Below, in pieces: positions 1 to 48,925 of a stretch of 64,000 nucleotides of DNA. Source of the DNA: Patescibacteria group bacterium UBA5532 (GTDB taxonomy: Bacteria; Patescibacteriota; Gracilibacteria; BD1-5; UBA2023); NCBI GenBank assembly GCA_002426885.1, contig DINU01000003.1, positions 17,634-81,633 on the forward strand, read 5' to 3'. The translations under genes and the position numbers were made by a program. Numbering within the stretch: position 1 is the stretch's first letter; every line of letters starts with the position of its first letter. The notes beneath the pieces were generated by a model. It worked only from the letters and a program-made list of their open reading frames with translations, did not search any database and was not told the origin of the DNA.

Positions 1-242
1 AAATTAATCAGACTCGTATAGGAAAGGAGTCGTTTTCGTCCATATATATCCGAGAGTTTTCCGAAGGTCATCCCTCAGAGAAAGACACCGATCGCATAAA
101 TCGCCTGACTGTATCAGGTCCACGAGGCACTCATCCCGAATGCACTGATGATTCACGGAAGAAGTGGGATGAAGAGGGACATTCCGAGGATATCGAGAAA
201 CGCGGTCACGAGAATCAGTGGAAGCTGAGATTTTTGGATCAT
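1..242 (-). CDS. MFS-type transporter, N-terminal part (gene continues beyond the left edge)
   Basis: ATG at 242-240 (minus). With TGA=Gly it reads MIQKSQLPLILVTAFLDILGMSLFIPLLPGIISAFGMSASWTGYSQAIYAIGVFLGGMTFGKLSDIYGRKRLL. This covers TM1, TM2 and the G-x-L-S-D-x-x-G-R-K loop typical of MFS_1 drug:H+ antiporters. 3 in-frame TGA. Track ORF 4-267 is another frame and looks spurious. Confidence 0.7.
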
Positions 243-335
243 AGGGTAAAATGAGAAAAATATACATGCAAAATCTTTCGAATTCTATCGAAAGATTTTT
301 GTTTGCAAAAAACGTATAACTTGGAAATAAAGCGA

Positions 336-3300
336 TTATTTTCTTCTTGGTTTTTTATCTTCTCGCATATAGACCTCATAGTAGATTCACTTCACGACGA
401 AGAGCGTCAGGAAGGATGCGGCGATAATTCCGAAGATAATAGTGAATCCCATACCCGACCAGAATGGATCTTTCATCGCGATCGGCACCATACCAAGCGC
501 GGTCGTGAGTGTCGTGAGCGTCATCGGCTCCAGTCGAGATGATCCCGCTTCCACGAGCGCCGTAATTCCGCGCATTCATTTCTCGAGATTCTCATTAATC
601 GCAGAGATCAGGATGATTCCGTGGTTCACAGCGATTCCGGTAAAGGCGATAAATCCGATACCAAACGGGATGGAGAACTGATTGCCAGTAAGCAGGAGTC
701 CGATCATAACGAATGGAAGCGACATGATCACTGAGTAGAGGATAATAATAGGCTGCAAGAAACTATTAAACTGGAGTGTCAGGATCGCGAAGATCACGAT
801 AATCGCGAGGAAAAATGATGAGAATGTCGCGATGATCAAATCAGAGTTTTCCTCATTTTCTCATCACTGAGAATAGGAAATGCCTTTCGGGAAATTATAC
901 GTCGAGGCGAATTTATTCAGTTCTGCTTGTTTTGTGAGTATGCTTTCTCCGTCGGCAAGATCAGCATCGACCGTGATCTCGATCTTACCATCGGCACGGA
1001 CGACGCTCGCGATCGCATTTTTTACACGCGTATCGACGAAGTCTCCGACACGATATGATGCCGTCCCGAGAGAAAATGGAATATTTAAGACATCTTCCAT
1101 TCGAGCTCATGAGAGAAATGTATCTGTCTTCAGGATGACGTCCATATCTGATCCATTATTCTCGACTGTTCCGACAGTGACACCGTTCATATTCTGTGTC
1201 ACTGCACTATATATGACTGATGGCGAGACTCCATAGTCTGCGAGAAGATCTTTTTTCAGAGAAAATACGAATTGTCCGGGAGTCTCTGTCGAGCTCGTGC
1301 CGACATTTTTCATGCCATCCATGGATTTCATATGTGCCTGGAAATCCTGAGAAACTTCTATCAGATCAGGAAGATCAGACGTCTCCTCAGCGACGAGCTT
1401 CAGCCCGACTGCTTTCCCCCCGGGAGGACCATTTTCCGCGACAGTACTTGTCACCTTAAATCCTTCTTGTTCGAGGGCAATCAACTTATCATAAATCTCC
1501 GCTTCGAGCTCAAATACAGAACGCTGTCCTTCCGCTTCACGAACTTGAAGTTTCGTGAGCTGAACACTGATACTTGCAGTATTTCCATTGATCGATGTCG
1601 CGACGTACTCGATCTCTGGATACCCAGAGAAGTACGATGTCCACTCTCAGACACGCTCTACCATGGCATCTGTCTCGAGTCAGACAGGTCACTCGATGGT
1701 GAATGTCGTCGATCCATTATCGCTATTCGGGAAGAGATTCATTCCGATCGCTGGAGCGAAAGCAAAAAAACCAAACAAGAAGAATACTACCGGGAGAAAT
1801 ATCGAAATCCGCCGTAATTTCGTATGTTCGAGGAAGTTCCGTAGGACTCACTTATACCACTCAGTTACCCTATGAAGGACACGAATCCGAAGTGGAGCGC
1901 TCGTCTCGAGTGTAAGTGTCTTCCCTTCGCGCTCTAATTCAAGGAGTTCTTTTTCCATTTCATCTGCATATTCCATCACGGAGTCACTCTCGATATATGT
2001 TTTTTTCTCACGAACAAAAAGGAGATAGAGTGCACTATTCACGGTAAGAGCGAGGACGAGTCCGCTCGCAAGGACTCAGAAAATCGTAATCGGAATGTAT
2101 GCGAGGAATTTTCCCATAATGCCCGGAAGCATCATCATCGGGATAAATACGACGATCGTCGTGCTGACTCCTGCGATAATCGGGATCGCATATTCACGCA
2201 GTGCGAGCATGATCGCAGAACGTGGAGAGTATCCGATACGGAGCTTCGCACTCGCAGCCTGGACGATGACGATGATCGTATCGACCGCGATTCAGAATGA
2301 GAGGATAAATGAGAAATTCGTAAGGAAGTTCAGAGAATATCCGAACTGATTCAGGATGATAAACGTGACGAGAAATGCAAGCGGAAGTGTCAGTGTCGCG
2401 AAAAGTGAGTCCTTAAATCCGACGAAGAAAAACATTGCCACGAAGACGAGAATCAGCGTCGTGCCACCCTCGCGAAGAAGATCGCTATAATCATCTCCGA
2501 TCATATCCGCGAGATCATTTCCGTAGATATATCCATAATCTTGGAATTCTTTCTTCTGAAAAAGCTCAGCGATGCGCGCCTTCGCGCCTTCACTCGCCGA
2601 GAAGATGCTCGCCGAGTCAGACTTATTTACTGTCAGTCCGACATAGGTATATGGTATACTTCCTGTCCCGAGCATGAGTGTGTTCGAAGAAGTATCCTTG
2701 TAGGTCCGTTCGATTGTCGCGATATCCCGCAGTCGGACCATATCTCCCGATGGGAGTGTGATCGGAGTATTAAGGAATTCGAAGCTTGTTAAATTCTTTC
2801 ACTCGATACGATAGTCGTATTTTTTTTCTCCGAGGGAAAAGTTGCCGATCGGCTGATCGACATTATACGATCGTACGATACCTGCGATCGAGGAAAGCGT
2901 GAGTCCGAGTGCATCGAGTTTTTCCTTCGGAATAACGATCGATACATCATAGACGGTCGAGTCCCCTGCTCCTCCGACGGTCACATTCGCGCTCGAGAGA
3001 CTTCCTGCACCGAGATCGACGGAGCTGACTCATGCGACTTGCTCGAGCTCTTTCTGGAGTTTCACAGCATGATCGATCATGAGTGCCCGAGAATCAGTAT
3101 TTTTCTTATTATAAATGAAGACTGAGAAAATCTGGTCTGTATTCGTCTCGATATCTGTCACGACGGGCGTGTTCGCATCCGATGGAAGTGAAACACGAGT
3201 GACAGCATTCCGCACATCACTGACGACATCTTTCGAGTTCGCAGTCGTCTTCAGTGTGAGAACGAGCGATGAATATCCGAGCCCCGATGTGCTATCGATC

Positions 3301-3572
3301 GTGTCGATACCTTTTATGTCCTTGATTTCTTTGTAAATCTTATCAGTGACAAGCGAGTCCATATCCTCTGGGTTGGTCCCTGGATATGACGTCGAGATAG
3401 AGATCATCCCGAGTGTGACCGCTGGGCTTGATTCTTTTGGGATCGTGATAGCGGCTGAAAATCCGAGTACGACGAGAAGGATAACTGCGAGGTAGGAAAC
3501 TCGGTATTTTCGTACCCAAAAACCAAAGAATCATTGCTCAAAATAATTTCTCAGTTCTGTAATTCGTAACAT
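336..3572 (-). CDS. RND-family efflux permease (AcrB/AcrD/AcrF type)
   Basis: Track fragments 387-575, 576-839, 864-1100, 1107-1484, 2292-2741, 2799-2984 and 3030-3407 share one frame and are separated only by TGA. The 1485-2291 gap was checked codon by codon and has no TAA/TAG. N-terminus: MLRITELRNYFEQGFFGFWVRKYRVSYLAVILLVVLGF...SYPGTNPEDMDSLVTDKIYKEI. C-terminal TM blocks: LQPIIILYSVIMSLPFVMIGLLLTG and RLEPMTLTTLTTALGMVPIA. Both match ACR_tran architecture. True stop TAA at 336-338. Confidence 0.88.
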
Positions 3573-34142: not shown

Positions 34143-34628
34143 TTATGACAGCGTTTTTACCACCGTGATATTTCTATCTTGATACCCAAGTTTTTGGTAG
34201 AAGTTATGCGCGATTTTATTCGGGACAAAAACCTCGATCGAGATGAGTGTACATTTCTCGTCTTGAAAATATTTTTCTATTGCGTGCATCAGTGAAAAAC
34301 CTATTTTTTCCCCACGATATCCTTCATCCACAAAAAGCTCCAGAATCACCCCGCATTTCGTCGGAATCATCTCGAGCTCTTCCTCTTCTGAAGTATCCTC
34401 GATAATCCCTGCGATCATACCGACGGGAATATTCCCACGCTTTGCGATGAAGATTTTCCCCTGTTTTTCGGAAATCTTCTGAAGTAATGTGGGGAAATAT
34501 GTGGGTCCGTACTGAGGCAGTCGGCGGAGTCTCTCGAGTGGATCGATCGCGACAAGATAATCCTGTAGCGCTTCGAGAAATTCTATAAGCGCCACTGCGT
34601 CGTCTCCATACTCGGTAATCTGTATCAT
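34143..34628 (-). CDS. GNAT family N-acetyltransferase (161 aa)
   Basis: Intact ORF. Acetyl-CoA motif A: ELFVDEGYRGEKIGFSLMHAIEKYF. Terminal NFYQKLGY motif. Confidence 0.85.
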   Translation of the reverse strand: MIQITEYGDDAVALIEFLEALQDYLVAIDPLERLRRLPQYGPTYFPTLLQKISEKQGKIFIAKRGNIPVGMIAGIIEDTSEEEELEMIPTKCGVILELFVDEGYRGEKIGFSLMHAIEKYFQDEKCTLISIEVFVPNKIAHNFYQKLGYQDRNITVVKTLS

Positions 34629-40388: not shown

Positions 40389-43300
40389 TTATTTTACCAC
40401 GATGGAGAGCATTTTATTCGGGATAAATATCTCCTTCACGATCTCTTTTCCCTCGAGCCATTTCGCGATATTCGGATCAGCAGAGACGACTGCGGAGACT
40501 TCCTCCTGTGAGACGCCCGTAAGGAAGGAAAAAGTTCATCGTAATTTTCCACCGATTTGGACCGCGATCGTCACTTCGTCATCGATAAGCATGAAGTCGT
40601 CATATTTCGGCCAGGAAGCGAAGAAGAGAGACTCATATTTATAGCCGAAGATTTCCGCGAAAAGCTGAGTCTGCATGAGAAATTCTTTCTGATAGTCTGC
40701 TTCTGTCGTCTCCGATGCACTTCTTCCGGTGATCTTCGAGATATAGAGACTCCGCATCGGGACGCTCTCATCGAGCTCTCCGAGGATCTGATCCGTCAGG
40801 ACATAGTCACGCGTGTACTCCCCTGTCTTCACACTTCCATCTGGGAAGAGGACCGCAAAAGCATCTTTATAGAAGAAGTCGACTTTCCCTCCCGCATCGC
40901 GCGCGATCGTCCGGTAAAAATCCTGCATCAGACGTGCTAGCTCTGACGCACTCACTTCATGTTCGGTTTTTCCGAGCTTCTCGAGTACGACTCTCCGCAC
41001 TTTTGTCGGCTCGAAATCCTGATCCTTAAAATACACAGCCGTGTCAGCGACCACAAGTGGCGCATCTCGCTCGATACCCCTGTATGCCTCGAGCTTCTGG
41101 AGTGCACACTCCATCGGAGTCGCCCCTGTCTCTTCCGTATCGATCAGATGGGGGAATGATTCGATCACGACGGATGGATCCAGTGGGGAAAATGCCTTCT
41201 GAGCGCGGGAGATTTTCCCTGCATTCCCTGTCGCAAAGTAAATCTTCGGAAAATGTGTCGATTTTTTACCCTGCTCTTTCTGGAAATACTCAAAACATTC
41301 TTCTGCTATATGTGGCGCGAACGGATGAAGCAGTCCAAGGAAAGACTCTTTCCACTGATCTCGAAGCTCCTCATCTTTCGGAAGTCAGGTGTTCATGACG
41401 ATGATAAGCTGAGCAATCGCTGTGTTAAATTTATAATTATCGATCCCTTCCCCGATCTGCTGGATCGCCTTATGAAGCGTCTTCATCGCGAGCATGTCAT
41501 CCTCGGCGTATTTTTCTTTTCCTTCGATAAAAAGCGTATAGACTCTATCGAGGAATCTCCGCATTCCGATCATCGCGGTCGTATCCCATGGCGCCGAGTC
41601 CTTGAAGTCCGCGAGATACATCTCATACATACGAAGGCTATCTGCTCCGTATTCTCGGATAATATCATCTGGATTGACGACATTTTTCAGAGATTTTGAC
41701 ATCTTGGCGACGACTCGCTTCACGAGCTCTCCTGTCTGTATCTCATAGAATTTTCCATCTTTTTCCTCGACGAGATCGACTGCCACGAGTCCGCCATTTT
41801 CTCGCTCATAGGCATATGCGAGGATCATCCCCTGATTTCGGAGTCGGTAAAATGGCTCTGTGGTCGAGACGACACCGATATCGAAGAGAAATTTATGCCA
41901 GAATCGTGCATAGAGCAAGTGGAGTACTGCATGCTCTGCTCCTCCGACATAGGAGTCGATACTTTTCCAGTACTGCTCGATCTCGGGAGCGACAAGTGCT
42001 CTGGTATCGTGTGGATCCATGTATCGGAGATAATACCAGCAACTTCCCGCCCACTGAGGCATTGTATTGGTTTCGCGTTTTCCAGAGAGATTCTTCGCGA
42101 GCTGTACATGGACGAATTCTGGGATATTTGTCAGTGGAGAGTTTCCGTCTCCAGCAGGTTCGAAGCGCTCTGTCTCAGGCAGACGAAGTGGAAGATCGTA
42201 ATCGCAGACGATTTTCCCGTAGATTCCATCGTAGATCTTACTCACGACTTTCCCTCCGATTACGAGTTCACGTATATTCCCTGAGCAGTTACATGTAGCT
42301 CCAGCGGTTCGCTCCCCATCATACGGTGGTCGCTTCAGGACGTATGCCATCTCGGGATCGATCGCCTGAGTAATATCATGAATATGAGGAATTTTCTTCA
42401 GATCTTCTTTTGCGAGGTGAATCAGTGGAATCGGCTCACCCCAGTAACGCTGTCGAGAGAAGAGCCAGTCACGGAGTTTATAGTTTACTTTTTTCTGACC
42501 GAATCCCTGTGTCTCTGCAAAATCTGTCAGCACTTCGCGAGCCTTCTCGGAAGTCAGTCCTGTGAAATCTCAGGAATCTACAAGGATTCCGTCGTCAGTG
42601 AGAGCCTCTTCTCAGTGATAAAATAACTTCCAATATCGTGAATGTCCGTGCCATGTAATCTCTTGTTCCACTATATCTTTCTCGACCCATTTCAATGTGT
42701 GTTTTCCTGTATCGACTTCAGATTCCCTCCGGTTCTCTGATCGAAGTATCACATGAAATACTCTTCATGTGGTACTTAAATTTCTACCACTTCTGTATCA
42801 TAGAAATTGCGAACGAGAAAGGGGAACAGGAGAAATGACTTCAAAATCAGAGTATCCTGTCTCCTCCAAGAGTTCACGAGTAATAGTATCGAGTTCGGAT
42901 TCTCAGCCTTCCATTCATCATCACACAAAGTGAACATGTCTGCCATTTTCTTGTTCTTCGATCTCAAGAAGAATTTCTCATTTTTCATTTTCCACGATGA
43001 TATCCACGATTTTTCGCTCTACTATATCAAGTCATTCTCGTACTCTACTTTCTCATGTGTATGCATGCTGATATGCGATACTCTGTTGTATCGGTAAATT
43101 ATACTTCTTCGCGAAAGCAAAATCGCGTTCATCATGTGCTGGGACCGCCATCACCGCCCCCGTTCCATAACTTCCGAGGACATAGTCCGCGATCCAGAGC
43201 GGAACTGACTCATTATTATATGGATTTACGAGATACGATCCAGTGAAGACACCGGTTTTTTCTTTACCATCGGCGGTACGATCCTGATCCGATATCTGAG

Positions 43301-44747
43301 CGGACTTCTGGATATACGCCTCGCACTCCTGCCCCTGCTCCTCGGTGATGAAGTCCTGTACATTCGGATGATCAGGCGCGATCACAGCATAGGTCATCCC
43401 GAACACAGTATCGATACGAGTCGTATAGACGCGGATGGAATGCTGGGGGTTTTTCTGGATTTTCATGAAAATCGCTCGCTCGCGGATCGTCGCATCTGTC
43501 AGATCTTCCCCGTACGACTTCCATACTTTTCTGAGCTTCTCGAGCTGAAAATCGAGGGGTGTATCGAGAAATGTACATCAGAATCGCTCATAGTACGGTG
43601 CGAGCTCCTTCGTGCAGTCGAGATAAAACTCTACTCCGTCGCTCATCTCCATCGCATAGGAAAGGAGCTCGTGTCCGAGTTTTTTTCCGCGATATGCAGG
43701 ATCGACATAGAGTGCCCCGAGTTCATGATACATACCATACTGTGCCACTCGCACAAATCCGACGATCATATCATTTTTCTTTGTGACGAAGAATTGCTCA
43801 GGCGCGAAATCGACAGTATGCAAATCCGTCGCTTTTCGAATCTCGAGAATCCGCTCGAAATCTTCTGAAGTTGCATGAGAAAAAGAAATATCTGAAAAAT
43901 CTCATTTCATCTCTTCTTCATTAACTTTCGGAATGGCTCCGAATTTACTATCTGCAAATGAGGGCTTTGCCGGACGATTGAGTTCACCTAGATTTTTCTG
44001 GAGAGGTAGCTCTCATTTTTTTGTTGTCTTTTTCATCTCGAACTCACATCCCTCACTTTTCCCGATCCAGTTGCGCTGCATATCTTTTATCCCCTCGGGC
44101 CAGTCGAGATCATCGACATCCTTGAGAAGCCGATCAGCATACTTCGTAATCGCGAGGACCCACTGACGGATTTTTCTTTTTTCGACTTTTGTCCCACAGC
44201 GCTCGCAGGTGAAATCAGAGAGAACCTCTTCATTCGCGAGTCCCGTCTTACAGCTCGGACAATAGTTAATCGGGAGATCCTGCTCATATGCGAGCCCTTG
44301 CTCGAAGAGCTTCAGAAAAATCCACTGTGTCCAGCGATAATACTCTGGATCCGTCGTGTCAATCTCGCGTGTCCAGTCATAGCTAAATCCGAGTTTTTTC
44401 AGCTGTCCAGAAAATGTGTGAATATTTTCCTTCGTGACGATCGCCGGGTGGATCCCTGTCTTGATCGCATAATTCTCAGCCGGAAGTCAGAAGGCATCCC
44501 ACCCCATCGCATGCAGAACGCGAAATCCCTGCGCATGCTTGTATCGCGCCATGATGTCATTCGCTGTGAATCCCTTCGGATGCCCGACATGGAGCCCTGC
44601 TCCACTCGGATATGGAAACATGTCAAGCGCGCAAAACTTCGGAACCCGAAAATCTTCTGCACTTTCTGGATTCGCGACGTTATACGTCCCTCTATTTTCC
44701 CAGATTTTTTGCCATTTCTCCTCGATGGCTCGATGATCGTATCCCAT
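40389..44747 (-). CDS. leuS: Leucyl-tRNA synthetase, 1452 aa, with three in-frame inserted domains
   Basis: All canonical LeuRS blocks are present and colinear. These are HIGH ([15 protein letters not shown]), GWDAF[G]LPAE, a Zn knuckle ([23 protein letters not shown]), [11 protein letters not shown]1 ([22 protein letters not shown] and [25 protein letters not shown]), [27 protein letters not shown] ([10 protein letters not shown]), [12 protein letters not shown] and the C-terminal WPKYD...VQIGGKLRG. 4359 nt with 17 TGA and no TAA/TAG; all gaps between track ORFs were translated by hand. TAA at 40389-40391. Confidence 0.9.
40632..41262 (-). other. Ham1/RdgB (ITPase)-like domain inserted between the LeuRS anticodon-binding and C-terminal domains
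   Basis: [19 protein letters not shown]...[22 protein letters not shown]...[11 protein letters not shown]. This resembles the A-T-G-N-x-x-K, E-E-T-G-x-T-x-x-E-N-A and A-D-D-S-G-L blocks of RdgB/Ham1. Flanked by [14 protein letters not shown] and [11 protein letters not shown]. Confidence 0.55.
42612..43050 (-). other. Nudix hydrolase domain inserted in the C-terminal part of the LeuRS CP1 domain
   Basis: Complete Nudix box, G-x5-E-x7-R-E-U-x-E-E-x-G-U: V[G][G][G]MEG[G][17 protein letters not shown]. Four of its Gly are TGA (42903-42923). Flanked by ...[10 protein letters not shown] and ...[24 protein letters not shown]. Confidence 0.8.
43467..44030 (-). other. GNAT acetyltransferase domain inserted in LeuRS at the entry to the CP1 editing domain
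   Basis: Lies between ...[10 protein letters not shown] and [18 protein letters not shown]... Sequence: [60 protein letters not shown] (GNAT motif A, R-G-x-x-L-G). Same frame as the flanking LeuRS sequence. Confidence 0.75.
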
Positions 44748-44808
44748 ATGAAAAGAAGAATATAAAACGCTCTATTTTTACTCTAAAAAGCGAGAAATAC
44801 AAGGAAAA

Positions 44809-45690
44809 ATGACATGACTCAGAAAGAGCATAATCACTTTAATTTGACTTATATCAAAAATATATTATGTTGACCCTTATGTTTTCTGAGGAAAAATGCG
44901 AGAAATAAGCGCAACATTCATATGAAGCAATGCACTCCCGATACGAGAAAACGGGATATTTCGGCTTCAGACAATCACACAAAAACGGATTCTCATAATT
45001 CTCTGAGTATGAGAATCGCTGATAGGAAAGCTCGAAGTAGCACTGGGAACAGAGGTCACGATCCAGTGAACAGAACACAATCGAGTAGAGCTTTTCGGGC
45101 AAAAAAACAAACTCACGATTCTCTGAGTCTCCGAGCTTACTATCTCATGAAATCAGTGAGAAATTACCATAGGTGATATACCAGAAAATGCGAGAATCCA
45201 TGCATGTGAGAATCAGGGCACGATAGGTGTCCTCGGAAATCGTAAAACGCATGACTGGGAAATAGATGTGTCAGGAAATCGTGGCGTAATCGTCCTTCGG
45301 CAAATGTGAAATGGCTCTGTACAAGCAAATCAGAACACGGGGGAGATTCAGATCGAAAATGCATGAGATGTGGACATCTTCAAGAATGCATGAACGATTA
45401 TCTTCCGTGGAAATGGATGGCAGACATGGATAGATGGCTGATCCACGGAGACGGGGAAAATACATCTCGATAACCTGCGTGGGATCGTATCACTCCCGAA
45501 GGACACAGGGACGATCATGCGACCATATATCGGACAGAAACTACTCACTCATATTGGTCCTACCCTGAGAACTGTGACGCAATATATCCACGCGATGTGA
45601 AGAAGTATCGTCTCTCATATTATACACATGACATCCGAAAGATGACCGAATACTACGAACACGGAAGAAAGTAACTTCGAGTCCTCGTAA
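44809..45690 (+). CDS. Beta-helix-type repeat protein (293 aa), hypothetical; 16 in-frame TGA
   Basis: No track ORF in this frame. All 15 sequence lines were read in frame, with no TAA/TAG for 293 codons. Repeats of G-x-I-x-I/V and N-x-G: LGVGESLIGKLEVALGTEVTIQGTE..LTILGVSELTISGNQGEITIGDIPENARIHACENQGTIGVLGNRKTHDWEIDVSGNRGVIVLRQMGNGSVQANQNTGEIQIENAGDVDIFKNAGTIIFRGNG. TAA at 45688-45690. The start could alternatively be the ATG at 44896. Confidence 0.65.
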
Positions 45691-48209: not shown

Positions 48210-48352
48210 AGTGTAGGTATCGGACGAAAACTTTATGTATCACATTCTCTTATCATTCCTGCGAAGGCAAGAATCCATATACATGGACGAATCATACGCC
48301 GAATTTCTGAATACTTCAAAACGATATGTCTGGCATTATCTGCGTAAAAACT

Positions 48353-48925
48353 CTATACTTGGTCATCTCTTTGTATGCGAAGTATCTGGTGTGTATCTGG
48401 ATTAACAGAGAAATTTTGTGATACAGCCCCCCGTCATCGTTCTAAGCTCAATTCATAAACCACCCCTTTGAAGATAACAATCACCCACTTCTGCTCTCAT
48501 TTTAAAAGTACAATTGATTTTCCCGGCACAACCCCATCCACACCAATGGCAATATATGTCTCCTCTGAAGTAACTTGCATCTCATATCCTTCTGGAGGAG
48601 TATACTGAGCCTCTGAAGTCTCTGGTCATTGGGTCGCTTGCTGGACTCTCCCTTGTATTTGCTTCTTTGTAGCTTCTGCCTTCGCTCGCATCCATGCATG
48701 GAAAAGGGAAGAAAGCTGAGAATGAACTTTTCTGAGATGAATGGAATCAGGATCTATCCTTAGATATTTCTCGAGTATTCCCAGTGTATCAAGCCAATCT
48801 TGCTGTGTTCTCCCTGCTTCAGGTTTCTGAAAAAAGACATGAACCTCTTGTTCTTCCTCAAAAGCTAAGTCTCAGAAGAGTGCAATAATTTTATCTTCTT
48901 CTGAGTCTGATGGTGGTGTTTCCAT
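48353..48925 (-). CDS. Hypothetical protein (190 aa) downstream of murC
   Basis: Absent from the track (4 in-frame TGA). Verified codon by codon: METPPSDSEEDKIIALFGDLAFEEEQEVHVFFQKPEAGRTQQDWLDTLGILEKYL...VVPGKSIVLLKGEQKWVIVIFKGVVYELSLERG... TAG at 48353-48355. 12-nt spacer after the murC stop codon. Confidence 0.55.

Follow-up and report, generated by a model that had tools for sequence, protein, structure and literature searches.

A leucyl-tRNA synthetase with three nested enzyme modules in a Patescibacteria genome that reads TGA as glycine

The DNA considered here, referred to as the window, is a stretch of 64,000 nucleotides (nt) from Patescibacteria group bacterium UBA5532, and the subject of this analysis is one gene on its minus strand, leuS, which encodes a leucyl-tRNA synthetase (LeuRS) of 1452 amino acids (aa). 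Three modules belonging to the GNAT, Nudix and Ham1/ITPase-like families are nested in frame within this polypeptide, and leuS is the only gene in the window that carries such modules. The explanation that we favour, with somewhat more confidence than doubt, is that the protein is a functional LeuRS which carries three autonomous small enzymes, that these derive from stand-alone genes which are in part linked to leuS, and that the modules are maintained by selection while the Nudix module is exchanged.

The leuS gene and its reading frame

The open reading frame (ORF) runs from an ATG at 44747-44745 to a TAA at 40391-40389 and contains 1452 sense codons, with 17 in-frame TGA codons and no internal TAA or TAG, which is the count that an initial annotation of the window, made from the sequence alone, had given for a single frame of 4359 nt. 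That annotation left the strand unstated; the frame itself stands, on the minus strand. A run of 1452 codons free of TAA and TAG has a chance probability of about 2e-25 at the local base composition. The features of the gene, with the evidence for each, are as follows, where S1 to S4 denote the insertion hot-spots defined below, dN/dS is the ratio of nonsynonymous to synonymous substitution rates, and CP1 is connective peptide 1, the editing domain.

40389..44747, minus strand: leuS, 1452 aa under genetic code 25 (TGA = Gly), ATG to TAA (TIGR00396; colinear assemblies L001, L002, L003 and L084)
44028..44747, minus strand: N-terminal catalytic part of LeuRS, aa 1-240, with HVGH at 44580-44591 and the zinc knuckle CPSC/CERC (dN/dS against L001 0.06)
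43473..44027, minus strand: S1 insert, aa 241-425, consisting of a 55-aa leader or linker, a GNAT core at aa 311-393 (43569-43817) and, C-terminal to it, a conserved helical extension (Pfam, PDB, PHROG)
43065..43472, minus strand: first part of the CP1 editing domain, aa 426-561, with TTRIDT at 43407-43424 and [12 protein letters not shown] at 43131-43166 (Pfam, motifs)
42594..43064, minus strand: S2 insert, Nudix allele A, aa 562-718, with the Nudix box at 42852-42920; exchangeable cassette 42606-43074 (Pfam, motif, breakpoints)
41274..42593, minus strand: rest of CP1, catalytic core (KMSKS at 41691-41705) and anticodon-binding domain, aa 719-1158 (dN/dS 0.07)
42144-42422, minus strand: hot-spot S3, aa 776-868, a lineage-typical 93 aa without an added enzyme here (homolog alignment)
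40620..41273, minus strand: S4 insert, Ham1/ITPase-fold module, aa 1159-1376 (Pfam, AlphaFold2, Foldseek, core residues)
40389..40619, minus strand: C-terminal (tRNA-binding) domain of LeuRS, aa 1377-1452, and stop codon (aligned with all homologs)

The interpretation of the gene depends on the reading of TGA. The window contains 129 ORFs of at least 200 aa when TGA is treated as a sense codon and 27 when table 11 is used, so the window as a whole requires TGA to be a sense codon. Three TGA positions lie in the LeuRS backbone, at aa 87 (in GWDAFGLP, a universal motif), aa 1121 and aa 1404, and the 118-120 homologs aligned at each of them without exception show G, or W if translated with code 4; four further TGA-encoded glycines (aa 609-611 and 615) lie in the Nudix box and just before it. 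Because TGA falls on invariant glycine columns of both LeuRS and the Nudix box, it is, on the evidence of these alignments, a glycine codon in the window's lineage, and termination at TGA and translation with code 4 were both rejected on this ground. The same columns place the window in the code 25 lineage (Gracilibacteria/Absconditabacteria), and the best matches of the window LeuRS are LeuRS of Gracilibacteria and Absconditabacteria. A search for tRNA genes within the window returned none, and hence tRNA-Gly(UCA) was not seen. A code 25 ORF of 379 aa on the opposite strand (44551-45690, plus strand) runs across the 5' end of leuS; most likely this is a spurious antisense frame, kept open by the loss of TGA as a stop.

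The LeuRS scaffold is complete. The whole protein scores 959.9 bits against the NCBIfam model for bacterial LeuRS, TIGR00396 (cut-off 548.4), and Pfam detects the LeuRS editing domain tRNA-synt_1_2 (PF13603, 1.6e-55) together with tRNA-synt_1 and Anticodon_1. The blocks follow one another in the usual order: HVGH, the HIGH signature of class I, at aa 53, CPSC/CERC at 163/181, the Thr-rich editing motif TTRIDT at 442, KMSKS, the second class I signature, at 1015, then Anticodon_1 and the C-terminal domain. The second editing motif, [12 protein letters not shown] at aa 528, includes the conserved Asp (GTG..HD motif). The domain order and all of the motifs are thus those of canonical bacterial LeuRS of the E. 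coli and T. thermophilus type, from which the window protein differs by about 590 extra residues that form three enzyme domains at S1, S2 and S4. Since every catalytic and editing motif is intact, the scaffold most likely still charges and proofreads tRNA-Leu. The initial annotation had described every canonical LeuRS block in its normal order, and had read the additional residues as three discrete insertions (GNAT, Nudix and Ham1-like) into one polypeptide, each flanked in frame by LeuRS sequence; both descriptions are borne out, and its module limits agree with those given here to within about 15 nt.

An architecture of this kind might be produced by chimeric assembly, or the modules might be made as separate proteins if some of the TGA codons terminated translation, and table-11 gene callers do fragment leuS in public collections. 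These same fragments provide handles to independent assemblies: P0121 led to L001, L002 and L003, and a 382-aa fragment of the window gene led to L084. L084 (SRR1171179) is 99.86% identical to the window, without gaps, over gene nt 1-3552, a range that covers both GNAT junctions and both Nudix junctions. L001 (ERR8482633), L002 (SRR30274995) and L003 (ERR8482632) are colinear with the window and about 98% identical to it except in the Nudix cassette; L001 and L002, which are the same in sequence, encode an intact protein of 1453 aa whose GNAT and Ham1-like junctions are as in the window. An exact-protein look-up of the window ORF across the left Nudix junction found nothing on record, and the neighbouring ORF gave L084. 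Four assemblies from different runs therefore agree base for base over the junctions, and chimeric assembly, which the initial annotation had named among the findings that would overturn its reading, was rejected. The Nudix module also occurs at exactly the same position in 47 other LeuRS, and the position of TGA on invariant glycines of LeuRS and the Nudix box speaks against separate proteins. The nearest other LeuRS among 5.8 billion proteins is only 59% identical, so the two lack shared k-mers from which a chimera could arise, and a k-mer chimera is implausible. An artefact as the source of the nested architecture is essentially excluded, and the artefact explanation in either form is left with a very small probability.

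The fragmentation itself affects public records. Calling with table 11 cuts leuS genes of this kind at TGA into pieces of 100-380 aa (P0121-P0133, P0282, P0287, P0289 and others), which are stored as separate "hypothetical", "NUDIX" or "Ham1" proteins, while other pipelines render TGA as Trp. Both kinds of record obscure the architecture and inflate the counts of apparently stand-alone proteins; a census of the Nudix module by word-indexed search returned mostly table-11 fragments.

Nested modules and insertion hot-spots

The three family assignments, which the initial annotation had made from the letters of the sequence, are upheld by Pfam, where GNAT, NUDIX and Ham1p_like models all score above their gathering cut-offs. 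The identification of the S1 insert as a GNAT domain is purely one by hidden Markov models (HMMs), and the domain is accordingly described as putative: Acetyltransf_7 (PF13508) matches residues 317-390 with 45.0 bits (gathering cut-off 27), and two further GNAT models, Acetyltransf_1 (PF00583) and Acetyltransf_10 (PF13673), also exceed their cut-offs (40.7 vs 20.7 and 32.4 vs 23.6 bits). The insert matches GNAT structures in the PDB and a PHROG acetyltransferase as well. A free-standing GNAT gene elsewhere in the window (34143-34628, minus strand) was considered as the donor and rejected, since the two are unrelated apart from 22 residues of motif A.

In the S2 insert, NUDIX (PF00293) matches residues 578-693 with 39.7 bits (gathering cut-off 21.1), and the Nudix box is complete, with G610-x5-E616-x7-R624-E625-L626-x-E628-E629-x-G631-Y632 corresponding to the consensus GX5EX7REUXEEXGU. 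Conservation of the box extends to the nested Nudix modules of other LeuRS: when W arising from code 4 is read as G, both glycines and the three glutamates of REUXEE are present in 47/47, the first glutamate is E or D in 46/47 and the Arg position is R or K in 46/47. The full-length AlphaFold2 model of P0008 was used as a proxy for the structure of the window protein; its homologous insert is modelled with a predicted local distance difference test score (pLDDT) of 80-92 and a secondary structure of the alpha/beta/alpha type. The module shares its complete box and its above-cut-off Pfam score with characterized Nudix hydrolases (PF00293; MutT, RppH and Ap4A-hydrolase types), yet it cannot be assigned to any characterized subfamily (best PDB and NCBIfam E values 1e-2 to 1e-4), and it differs from known Nudix hydrolases in being nested in an editing domain and exchanged as a cassette.

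The Ham1-like module at S4 matches Ham1p_like (PF01725) at residues 1169-1254 with 26.5 bits (cut-off 22.5), over profile positions 1-85 of 186 only. Its AlphaFold2 model, built from 24 modules, has a pLDDT of 89.3 and a predicted template modelling (TM) score of 0.80, and shows a full ITPase fold. Foldseek aligns the model with Ham1/ITPase structures over about 205 columns with target-normalized TM scores of 0.67-0.77 (E 3e-10 to 4bnq). The phosphate- and metal-binding core (TGN..K, Glu, Lys, Asp) is conserved in nested and free members alike, with N in 58/60 and K, E, K and D each in 60/60. The full fold and the phosphate/metal residues are shared with the RdgB/ITPA/Ham1 pyrophosphatases (PF01725, TIGR00042), whereas the nested subfamily has its own set of invariant residues and probably differs in substrate specificity.

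The sites that receive such modules were defined by aligning the window LeuRS with its 120 best homologs (Gracilibacteria/Absconditabacteria, 864-1429 aa; n = 121), which yields four hot-spots, given here in residues of the window protein.

S1, residues 238-428: basal loop of 9 aa
S2, residues 560-722: basal loop of about 13-50 aa
S3, residues 776-868: basal loop of 32, 67 or 91 aa
S4, residues 1158-1378: basal loop of 10 aa

The survey of leuS in other Gracilibacteria and Absconditabacteria, which the initial annotation had suggested as a check, thus shows four recurrent sites with varied sets of enzymes. A Nudix module of about 164 aa occupies S2 in 47/121, among them Ca. Absconditicoccus praedator and Ca. 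Vampirococcus lugosii, and a Ham1-like module of about 217 aa occupies S4 in 20/121. S1, which lies a few residues before the TTRxDT editing motif, contains GNAT, an alpha/beta-hydrolase of the Ser_hydrolase type, a Ham1-like module, a PD-(D/E)XK nuclease or a K-rich module X; S3 contains X, Nudix (P0035), Ham1-like (P0175) or HAD (P0238). The largest case, P0238, is a LeuRS of 1610 aa with two Nudix modules, one Ham1-like module and one HAD. The combination of GNAT, Nudix and Ham1-like modules is unique to the window among the 121 and was found elsewhere only in strain-level relatives, and the closest combination among the 121 is that of P0005 (PDDEXK, Nudix and Ham1-like). The initial annotation knew of no described LeuRS with this architecture; this remains so for the exact triple, but nested Nudix and nested Ham1-like modules are, as these counts show, common.

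Nesting is not a by-product of code 25, since Saccharibacteria, which use the standard code, carry the same Nudix module at S2 of their LeuRS, as surfaced in a scan of GTDB genomes. In L005 (CAZOZG010000006.1, Saccharibacteria, 1129 aa) the S2 Nudix is accompanied by an alpha/beta-hydrolase at S1 with an intact GHSLGG motif, and L004, L006 and L007 are further standard-code Saccharibacteria or Patescibacteria LeuRS with an S2 Nudix. Public records of nested LeuRS, those of Ca. Absconditicoccus praedator and Ca. Vampirococcus lugosii among them, are labelled simply leucine--tRNA ligase, and literature searches found no description of a LeuRS with nested enzymes, of the hot-spots or of cassette exchange. 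A 2026 survey of domain insertions describes the LeuRS editing domain as insertion-only, with zero host events in 213 cases (PMC13114784); in the window, the CP1 editing domain, itself an insertion, is host to two enzymes, GNAT and Nudix.

Module X, of about 130 aa, occurs at S1 and/or S3 of several LeuRS (P0011, P0104, P0114, P0039, P0004, P0028), follows the pattern ...KKW.P...G.GH..LA..SL...ISW.YL..HFK.K..KE...R...LKTYY, and has no match in Pfam, the PDB, PHROGs or PADLOC. The 55-aa linker that precedes GNAT in the window (aa 241-295, 43863-44027; [24 protein letters not shown]...) is similar to the leader at the N terminus of X and, to judge from this resemblance, may be the remnant of a deleted X module.

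Cassette exchange and stand-alone relatives

The comparison with near-identical strains separates the history of the Nudix module from that of the gene around it. Outside gene nt 1674-2142 (42606-43074), L001 and L002 share about 98% identity with the window; within this interval they carry a different Nudix module, allele B, which is only 27% identical to allele A of the window (112/153 aligned residues differ) but is of nearly equal length, in frame and intact in its Nudix box. The breakpoints are sharp, with identity up to nt 1673 and again from nt 2143-2146, and a few differences are clustered within 25 nt of LeuRS sequence left of the cassette; these features point to recombination between leuS genes within conserved flanks. 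The G+C content of alleles A and B is 0.39 and 0.34, compared with 0.45-0.51 in the rest of the gene. TGA is used for 10/16 glycine codons (62%) in the cassette, for 25% in the GNAT module, for 4/63 (6%) in the LeuRS backbone, for 0/13 in the Ham1-like module and for 23% window-wide, and the high use in allele A indicates that the donor was another organism in which TGA encodes glycine.

The two alleles have different relatives. Allele A groups with the Nudix modules of P0013 and P0014 (48% identity), and allele B with those of P0009 and P0012 (49% and 46%). Over 1081 pairs of LeuRS that carry a Nudix module, pairs which are not independent, so that P values are indicative only, the identity of the Nudix module is uncorrelated with that of the backbone (Spearman 0.04), with pairs such as 0.91 vs 0.28 and 0.89 vs 0.30. 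The Nudix slot is thus an exchangeable cassette that does not follow the backbone. At S4, by contrast, the Ham1-like module has a Spearman coefficient of 0.55 against backbone identity and has been inherited mostly vertically.

Nucleotide divergence from L001 is also uneven along the gene, from about 0.7% in the N-terminal part to about 4% in the GNAT module, and this unevenness, together with that of TGA-glycine use, may reflect a mosaic history of recombination. Elsewhere in the window, 580 nt at 48210-48789 have no nucleotide match in L001 (which has 404 nt there, at 695-1098), although that strain is otherwise 96-98% identical; the segment overlaps a code 25 ORF (48353-48925, minus strand, 190 aa) and may be another strain-variable locus.

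The relatives of the Ham1-like module indicate where such modules come from. An exhaustive profile search with the module recovered 336 relatives among 1.84 billion cluster representatives. Free-standing members have 205-215 aa, P0136 being one example, whose 5.4% Trp reflects a TGA-recoded genome translated with code 4. Among the long proteins found by this search LeuRS is the commonest host (about 18/24), with many copies at S1, one at S3 and some in multi-module inserts; a metagenome census of the family gave two loci only, both nested in LeuRS. The other hosts are topoisomerase I (P0141, P0148), GlyRS (P0227), Cbf5 (P0140) and thioredoxin reductase (P0207), and there are also fusions of the module with Ser_hydrolase, Nudix or RNase PH, of which the last (P0196) is a parallel for the attachment of Ham1 to tRNA-related enzymes. 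The S4 copies form one coherent group, with an identity of 0.55 within the group and about 0.33 to all others, whereas the S1 copies interleave with stand-alone proteins, which implies repeated capture. In both topoisomerase I proteins, P0141 (1621 aa) and P0148 (982 aa), the module lies between Toprim and Topoisom_bac, and P0141 additionally contains a Nudix module, also nested, and a true intein that carries a LAGLIDADG endonuclease.

The neighbourhoods of stand-alone genes were examined for those that are the closest relatives of nested copies. For Nudix proteins of the LeuRS type, P0283, which has the N-terminal leader of the nested module (FREGVEIVER...), lies 18 nt upstream of an insert-free leuS of 809 aa, in the same direction, in two assemblies. 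P0288 lies 88 nt upstream of thrS in 22 contigs, with a terminator-like hairpin and a TATAAT box in the spacer, and its adjacency is weaker evidence of coupling; P0284, P0285 and P0290 have no aminoacyl-tRNA synthetase neighbour, and P0286, at a contig end, is uninformative. For Ham1-like proteins, P0166 lies 22 nt upstream of an archaeal leuS (TIGR00395, 832 bits, cut-off 648), P0137 lies 15 nt upstream of Sua5/TsaC on L095 (ENA ERZ18628254), with RelA/SpoT and Nudix genes within 4 kb, and P0149, in a LexA-DinB cluster, is 3 nt downstream of a gene of the Peptidase_S66 (MccF/LdcA) family. A leuS gene thus lies directly downstream of 2/8 informative stand-alone genes, from two families and from a bacterium and an archaeon. 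As leuS accounts for only about 0.1% of a genome, chance would very rarely produce such a result, with the caveat that the genes examined had been picked for their closeness to nested copies. This adjacency is the main evidence supporting an association with LeuRS that is specific and does not merely reflect permissive loops.

Possible roles of the nested enzymes

In the favoured explanation, three surface loops would each carry a small enzyme that folds independently: a GNAT acyltransferase at S1, the first hairpin of CP1; a Nudix pyrophosphohydrolase at S2, another CP1 loop; and an NTP pyrophosphatase of the ITPase fold at S4, which links the anticodon-binding domain to the C-terminal domain. 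The modules would be drawn from a portable set common to Candidate Phyla Radiation (CPR) bacteria, and these permissive loops would have taken up stand-alone genes, some of them adjoining leuS, on repeated occasions. At S4 the Ham1-like copy would afterwards have descended mostly vertically, while the Nudix copy would have been swapped among leuS alleles of different lineages by way of the conserved flanks. The two hydrolases might then clear nucleotide species at the place where ATP is consumed and adenylates are made, with non-canonical NTPs, dinucleoside polyphosphates and other NDP-X compounds as candidate substrates, and nesting would guarantee stoichiometric co-expression and co-localization with an essential enzyme. 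The lineage has no nucleotide biosynthesis and scavenges or imports host DNA (PMC8080830), which makes nucleotide-sanitizing enzymes plausible cargo and provides a supply of foreign DNA for recombination. As to selection, dN/dS between the window and L001 is 0.24 in the GNAT module and 0.17 in the Ham1-like module, compared with 0.06-0.07 in the backbone, and the C-terminal domain of LeuRS has no amino-acid differences from L001; although the counts are small, these ratios indicate purifying selection on both modules.

Several observations weigh against this explanation. The conserved motif A of GNAT is only partly kept, reading R353-G-K-K356-L-G358 where the canonical form is Q/R-x-x-G-x-G/A, and its first Gly is replaced by Lys in 5/5 LeuRS-nested GNATs; the GNAT region of the proxy model of P0008, for which the alignment is three sequences deep, reaches a pLDDT of only 30-58. 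The Ham1-like module scores 20.1 bits against the equivalog model for RdgB/ITPA, TIGR00042 (cut-off 145), only its N-terminal half aligns with RdgB/ITPA, and it lacks the SHR motif for base recognition at the C terminus. Because TIGR00042 lies so far below its cut-off and SHR is missing, the module is a distinct subfamily of the ITPase fold and not a canonical RdgB. Foldseek matches the HAM1-like subunit of the KomBC defence complex, which senses dITP, equally well, and the module may, as the missing SHR motif and the half-matched Pfam profile would allow, bind or sense a nucleotide instead of hydrolysing ITP. The turnover of the Nudix module is rapid, which a plain housekeeping function would not predict. 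Finally, modules are distributed as a mosaic among close relatives, each of them being absent from many, so that none is required for the function of LeuRS as such.

A more specific proposal is that the modules act directly on species peculiar to LeuRS, as a built-in system of protection or quality control, in which GNAT would N-acetylate mimics of leucyl-adenylate, Nudix would hydrolyse Ap4A, Ap3A or adenylate-like by-products, the ITPase-like module would remove competitors for the ATP site, and the fast turnover of Nudix would reflect an arms race with nucleotide-like toxins. We regard this direct coupling as unlikely, though it accounts for a number of the observations. In two domains of life, a stand-alone homolog is the gene directly upstream of leuS, and LeuRS is by far the commonest host of the Ham1-like family; GlyRS is another host, and one copy that stands alone lies ahead of the gene for Sua5/TsaC, another enzyme that forms an acyl-adenylate. 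GNAT and Nudix both lie inside the editing domain, S1 being only a few residues from TTRxDT, and Nudix cassettes are exchanged at the strain level. Set against these are the nesting of the same Ham1-like family in topoisomerase I, Cbf5 and thioredoxin reductase, the placement of modules in different loops of different LeuRS, which leaves no fixed geometry relative to the active site, the absence of each module from many close relatives, and the terminator-like hairpin that interrupts the adjacency of Nudix and thrS. Aminoacyl-AMP, moreover, is not a typical NDP-X substrate of Nudix enzymes. The suggestion of the initial annotation that the fusion might be a quality-control or regulatory module fares similarly, since it gains from the leuS adjacency of stand-alone Nudix and Ham1-like genes and loses from the presence of Ham1-like modules in TopA, GlyRS, Cbf5 and thioredoxin reductase and from the mosaic content of the sites. 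The connection that it drew with a very reduced genome would be in keeping with the lineage.

Resistance to toxins offers an analogy for direct coupling. MccE2 (a GNAT) and MccF (S66) are immunity enzymes against aminoacyl-nucleotide inhibitors of aminoacyl-tRNA synthetases, and TM84 targets LeuRS (PMC8323819); in the window a GNAT is physically tied to a synthetase, one stand-alone Ham1-like gene follows a gene of the S66 (MccF/LdcA) family, and a role in protection would suit the chemistry. The similarity is a functional analogy only, since no specific sequence similarity to MccE2 and no antibiotic gene cluster were found. A search against anti-phage defence systems gave only a generic Nudix match to the candidate system PDC-S07 (33 bits, allele B), and the Ham1-like, GNAT and X modules had no match in it. 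A broader and rather speculative form of the idea, to which we give a low probability, is that in CPR bacteria and in archaea with small genomes LeuRS, and to a lesser extent some other essential enzymes, serve as a docking platform for exchangeable nucleotide-directed enzymes which would protect the synthetase or the cell against nucleotide-like toxins, antimetabolites or signalling nucleotides, the Nudix swap being the footprint of an arms race.

At the other extreme, the modules might be selfish or neutral in-frame cassettes, similar to inteins without splicing, which spread by recombination with little benefit to the host and persist since their imprecise deletion is lethal. The hosts are indeed mostly essential genes (LeuRS, GlyRS, TopA, Cbf5), one TopA also having a true intein; the same module families recur at several sites, a PD-(D/E)XK nuclease and a K-rich module are found at the same hot-spots, exchange is decoupled from the backbone, and the Nudix cassette deviates in G+C content and codon usage. 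A purely selfish model is nevertheless disfavoured by the conservation of catalytic residues in all nested copies and by the dN/dS of 0.17-0.24 in GNAT and Ham1-like; in addition, the orthologs that stand alone are normal genes of the cell, the window gene showed no machinery for homing or splicing, and the sites are variable surface loops and not conserved active-site motifs as for inteins. We consider such a model improbable.

The comparison with inteins is a close one in some respects, since they too are in-frame insertions in essential proteins with a patchy distribution and horizontal exchange. An intein was rejected for the window protein, which has no Hint, splicing or homing-endonuclease match in Pfam at E up to 1, while the same method detected the real intein in P0141. 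Unlike inteins, the inserts keep their catalytic motifs, are under purifying selection and are presumably retained in the mature protein.

Other known systems share parts of the phenomenon. NCBIfam NF040702 (isoleucine--tRNA ligase, N-acetyltransferase domain-containing) provides, as a curated model, an earlier example of a GNAT domain in a class Ia synthetase, but concerns a different synthetase, and the window protein, at 58 bits against a cut-off of 1999, is not a member. To our knowledge, that family neither combines Nudix or ITPase modules nor shows insertion hot-spots. The domains appended to eukaryotic synthetases (GST, WHEP, EMAPII and UNE-type) are mostly terminal, non-catalytic interaction domains. 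They resemble the present case in that accretion is progressive and does not compromise the core function, and differ from it in that the additions described here are internal, catalytic, bacterial and interchangeable among strains. The accretion of domains on synthetases, and an IleRS-GNAT model, are thus already known; a LeuRS with nested enzymes, the hot-spots and the exchange of cassettes appear to be new.

The present analysis describes a bacterial synthetase with up to five catalytic domains nested in four fixed loops, one slot of which has been swapped between near-identical strains, a phenomenon that is hidden from routine annotation because table 11 yields fragments and the full-length forms are named only "leucine--tRNA ligase". 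If the hydrolases act on synthetase-related nucleotides, they would link translation in a new way to nucleotide hygiene or resistance to toxins, in organisms that depend on scavenged nucleotides; otherwise, LeuRS would be a natural essential carrier of unrelated enzymes, and its permissive loops, mapped by evolution, would be useful for protein engineering. The docking-platform proposal, if true, would mean that the translation machinery contains an unrecognized, cassette-based layer of immunity or quality control. In each case the finding bears on the evolution of synthetases and on the biology of the CPR.

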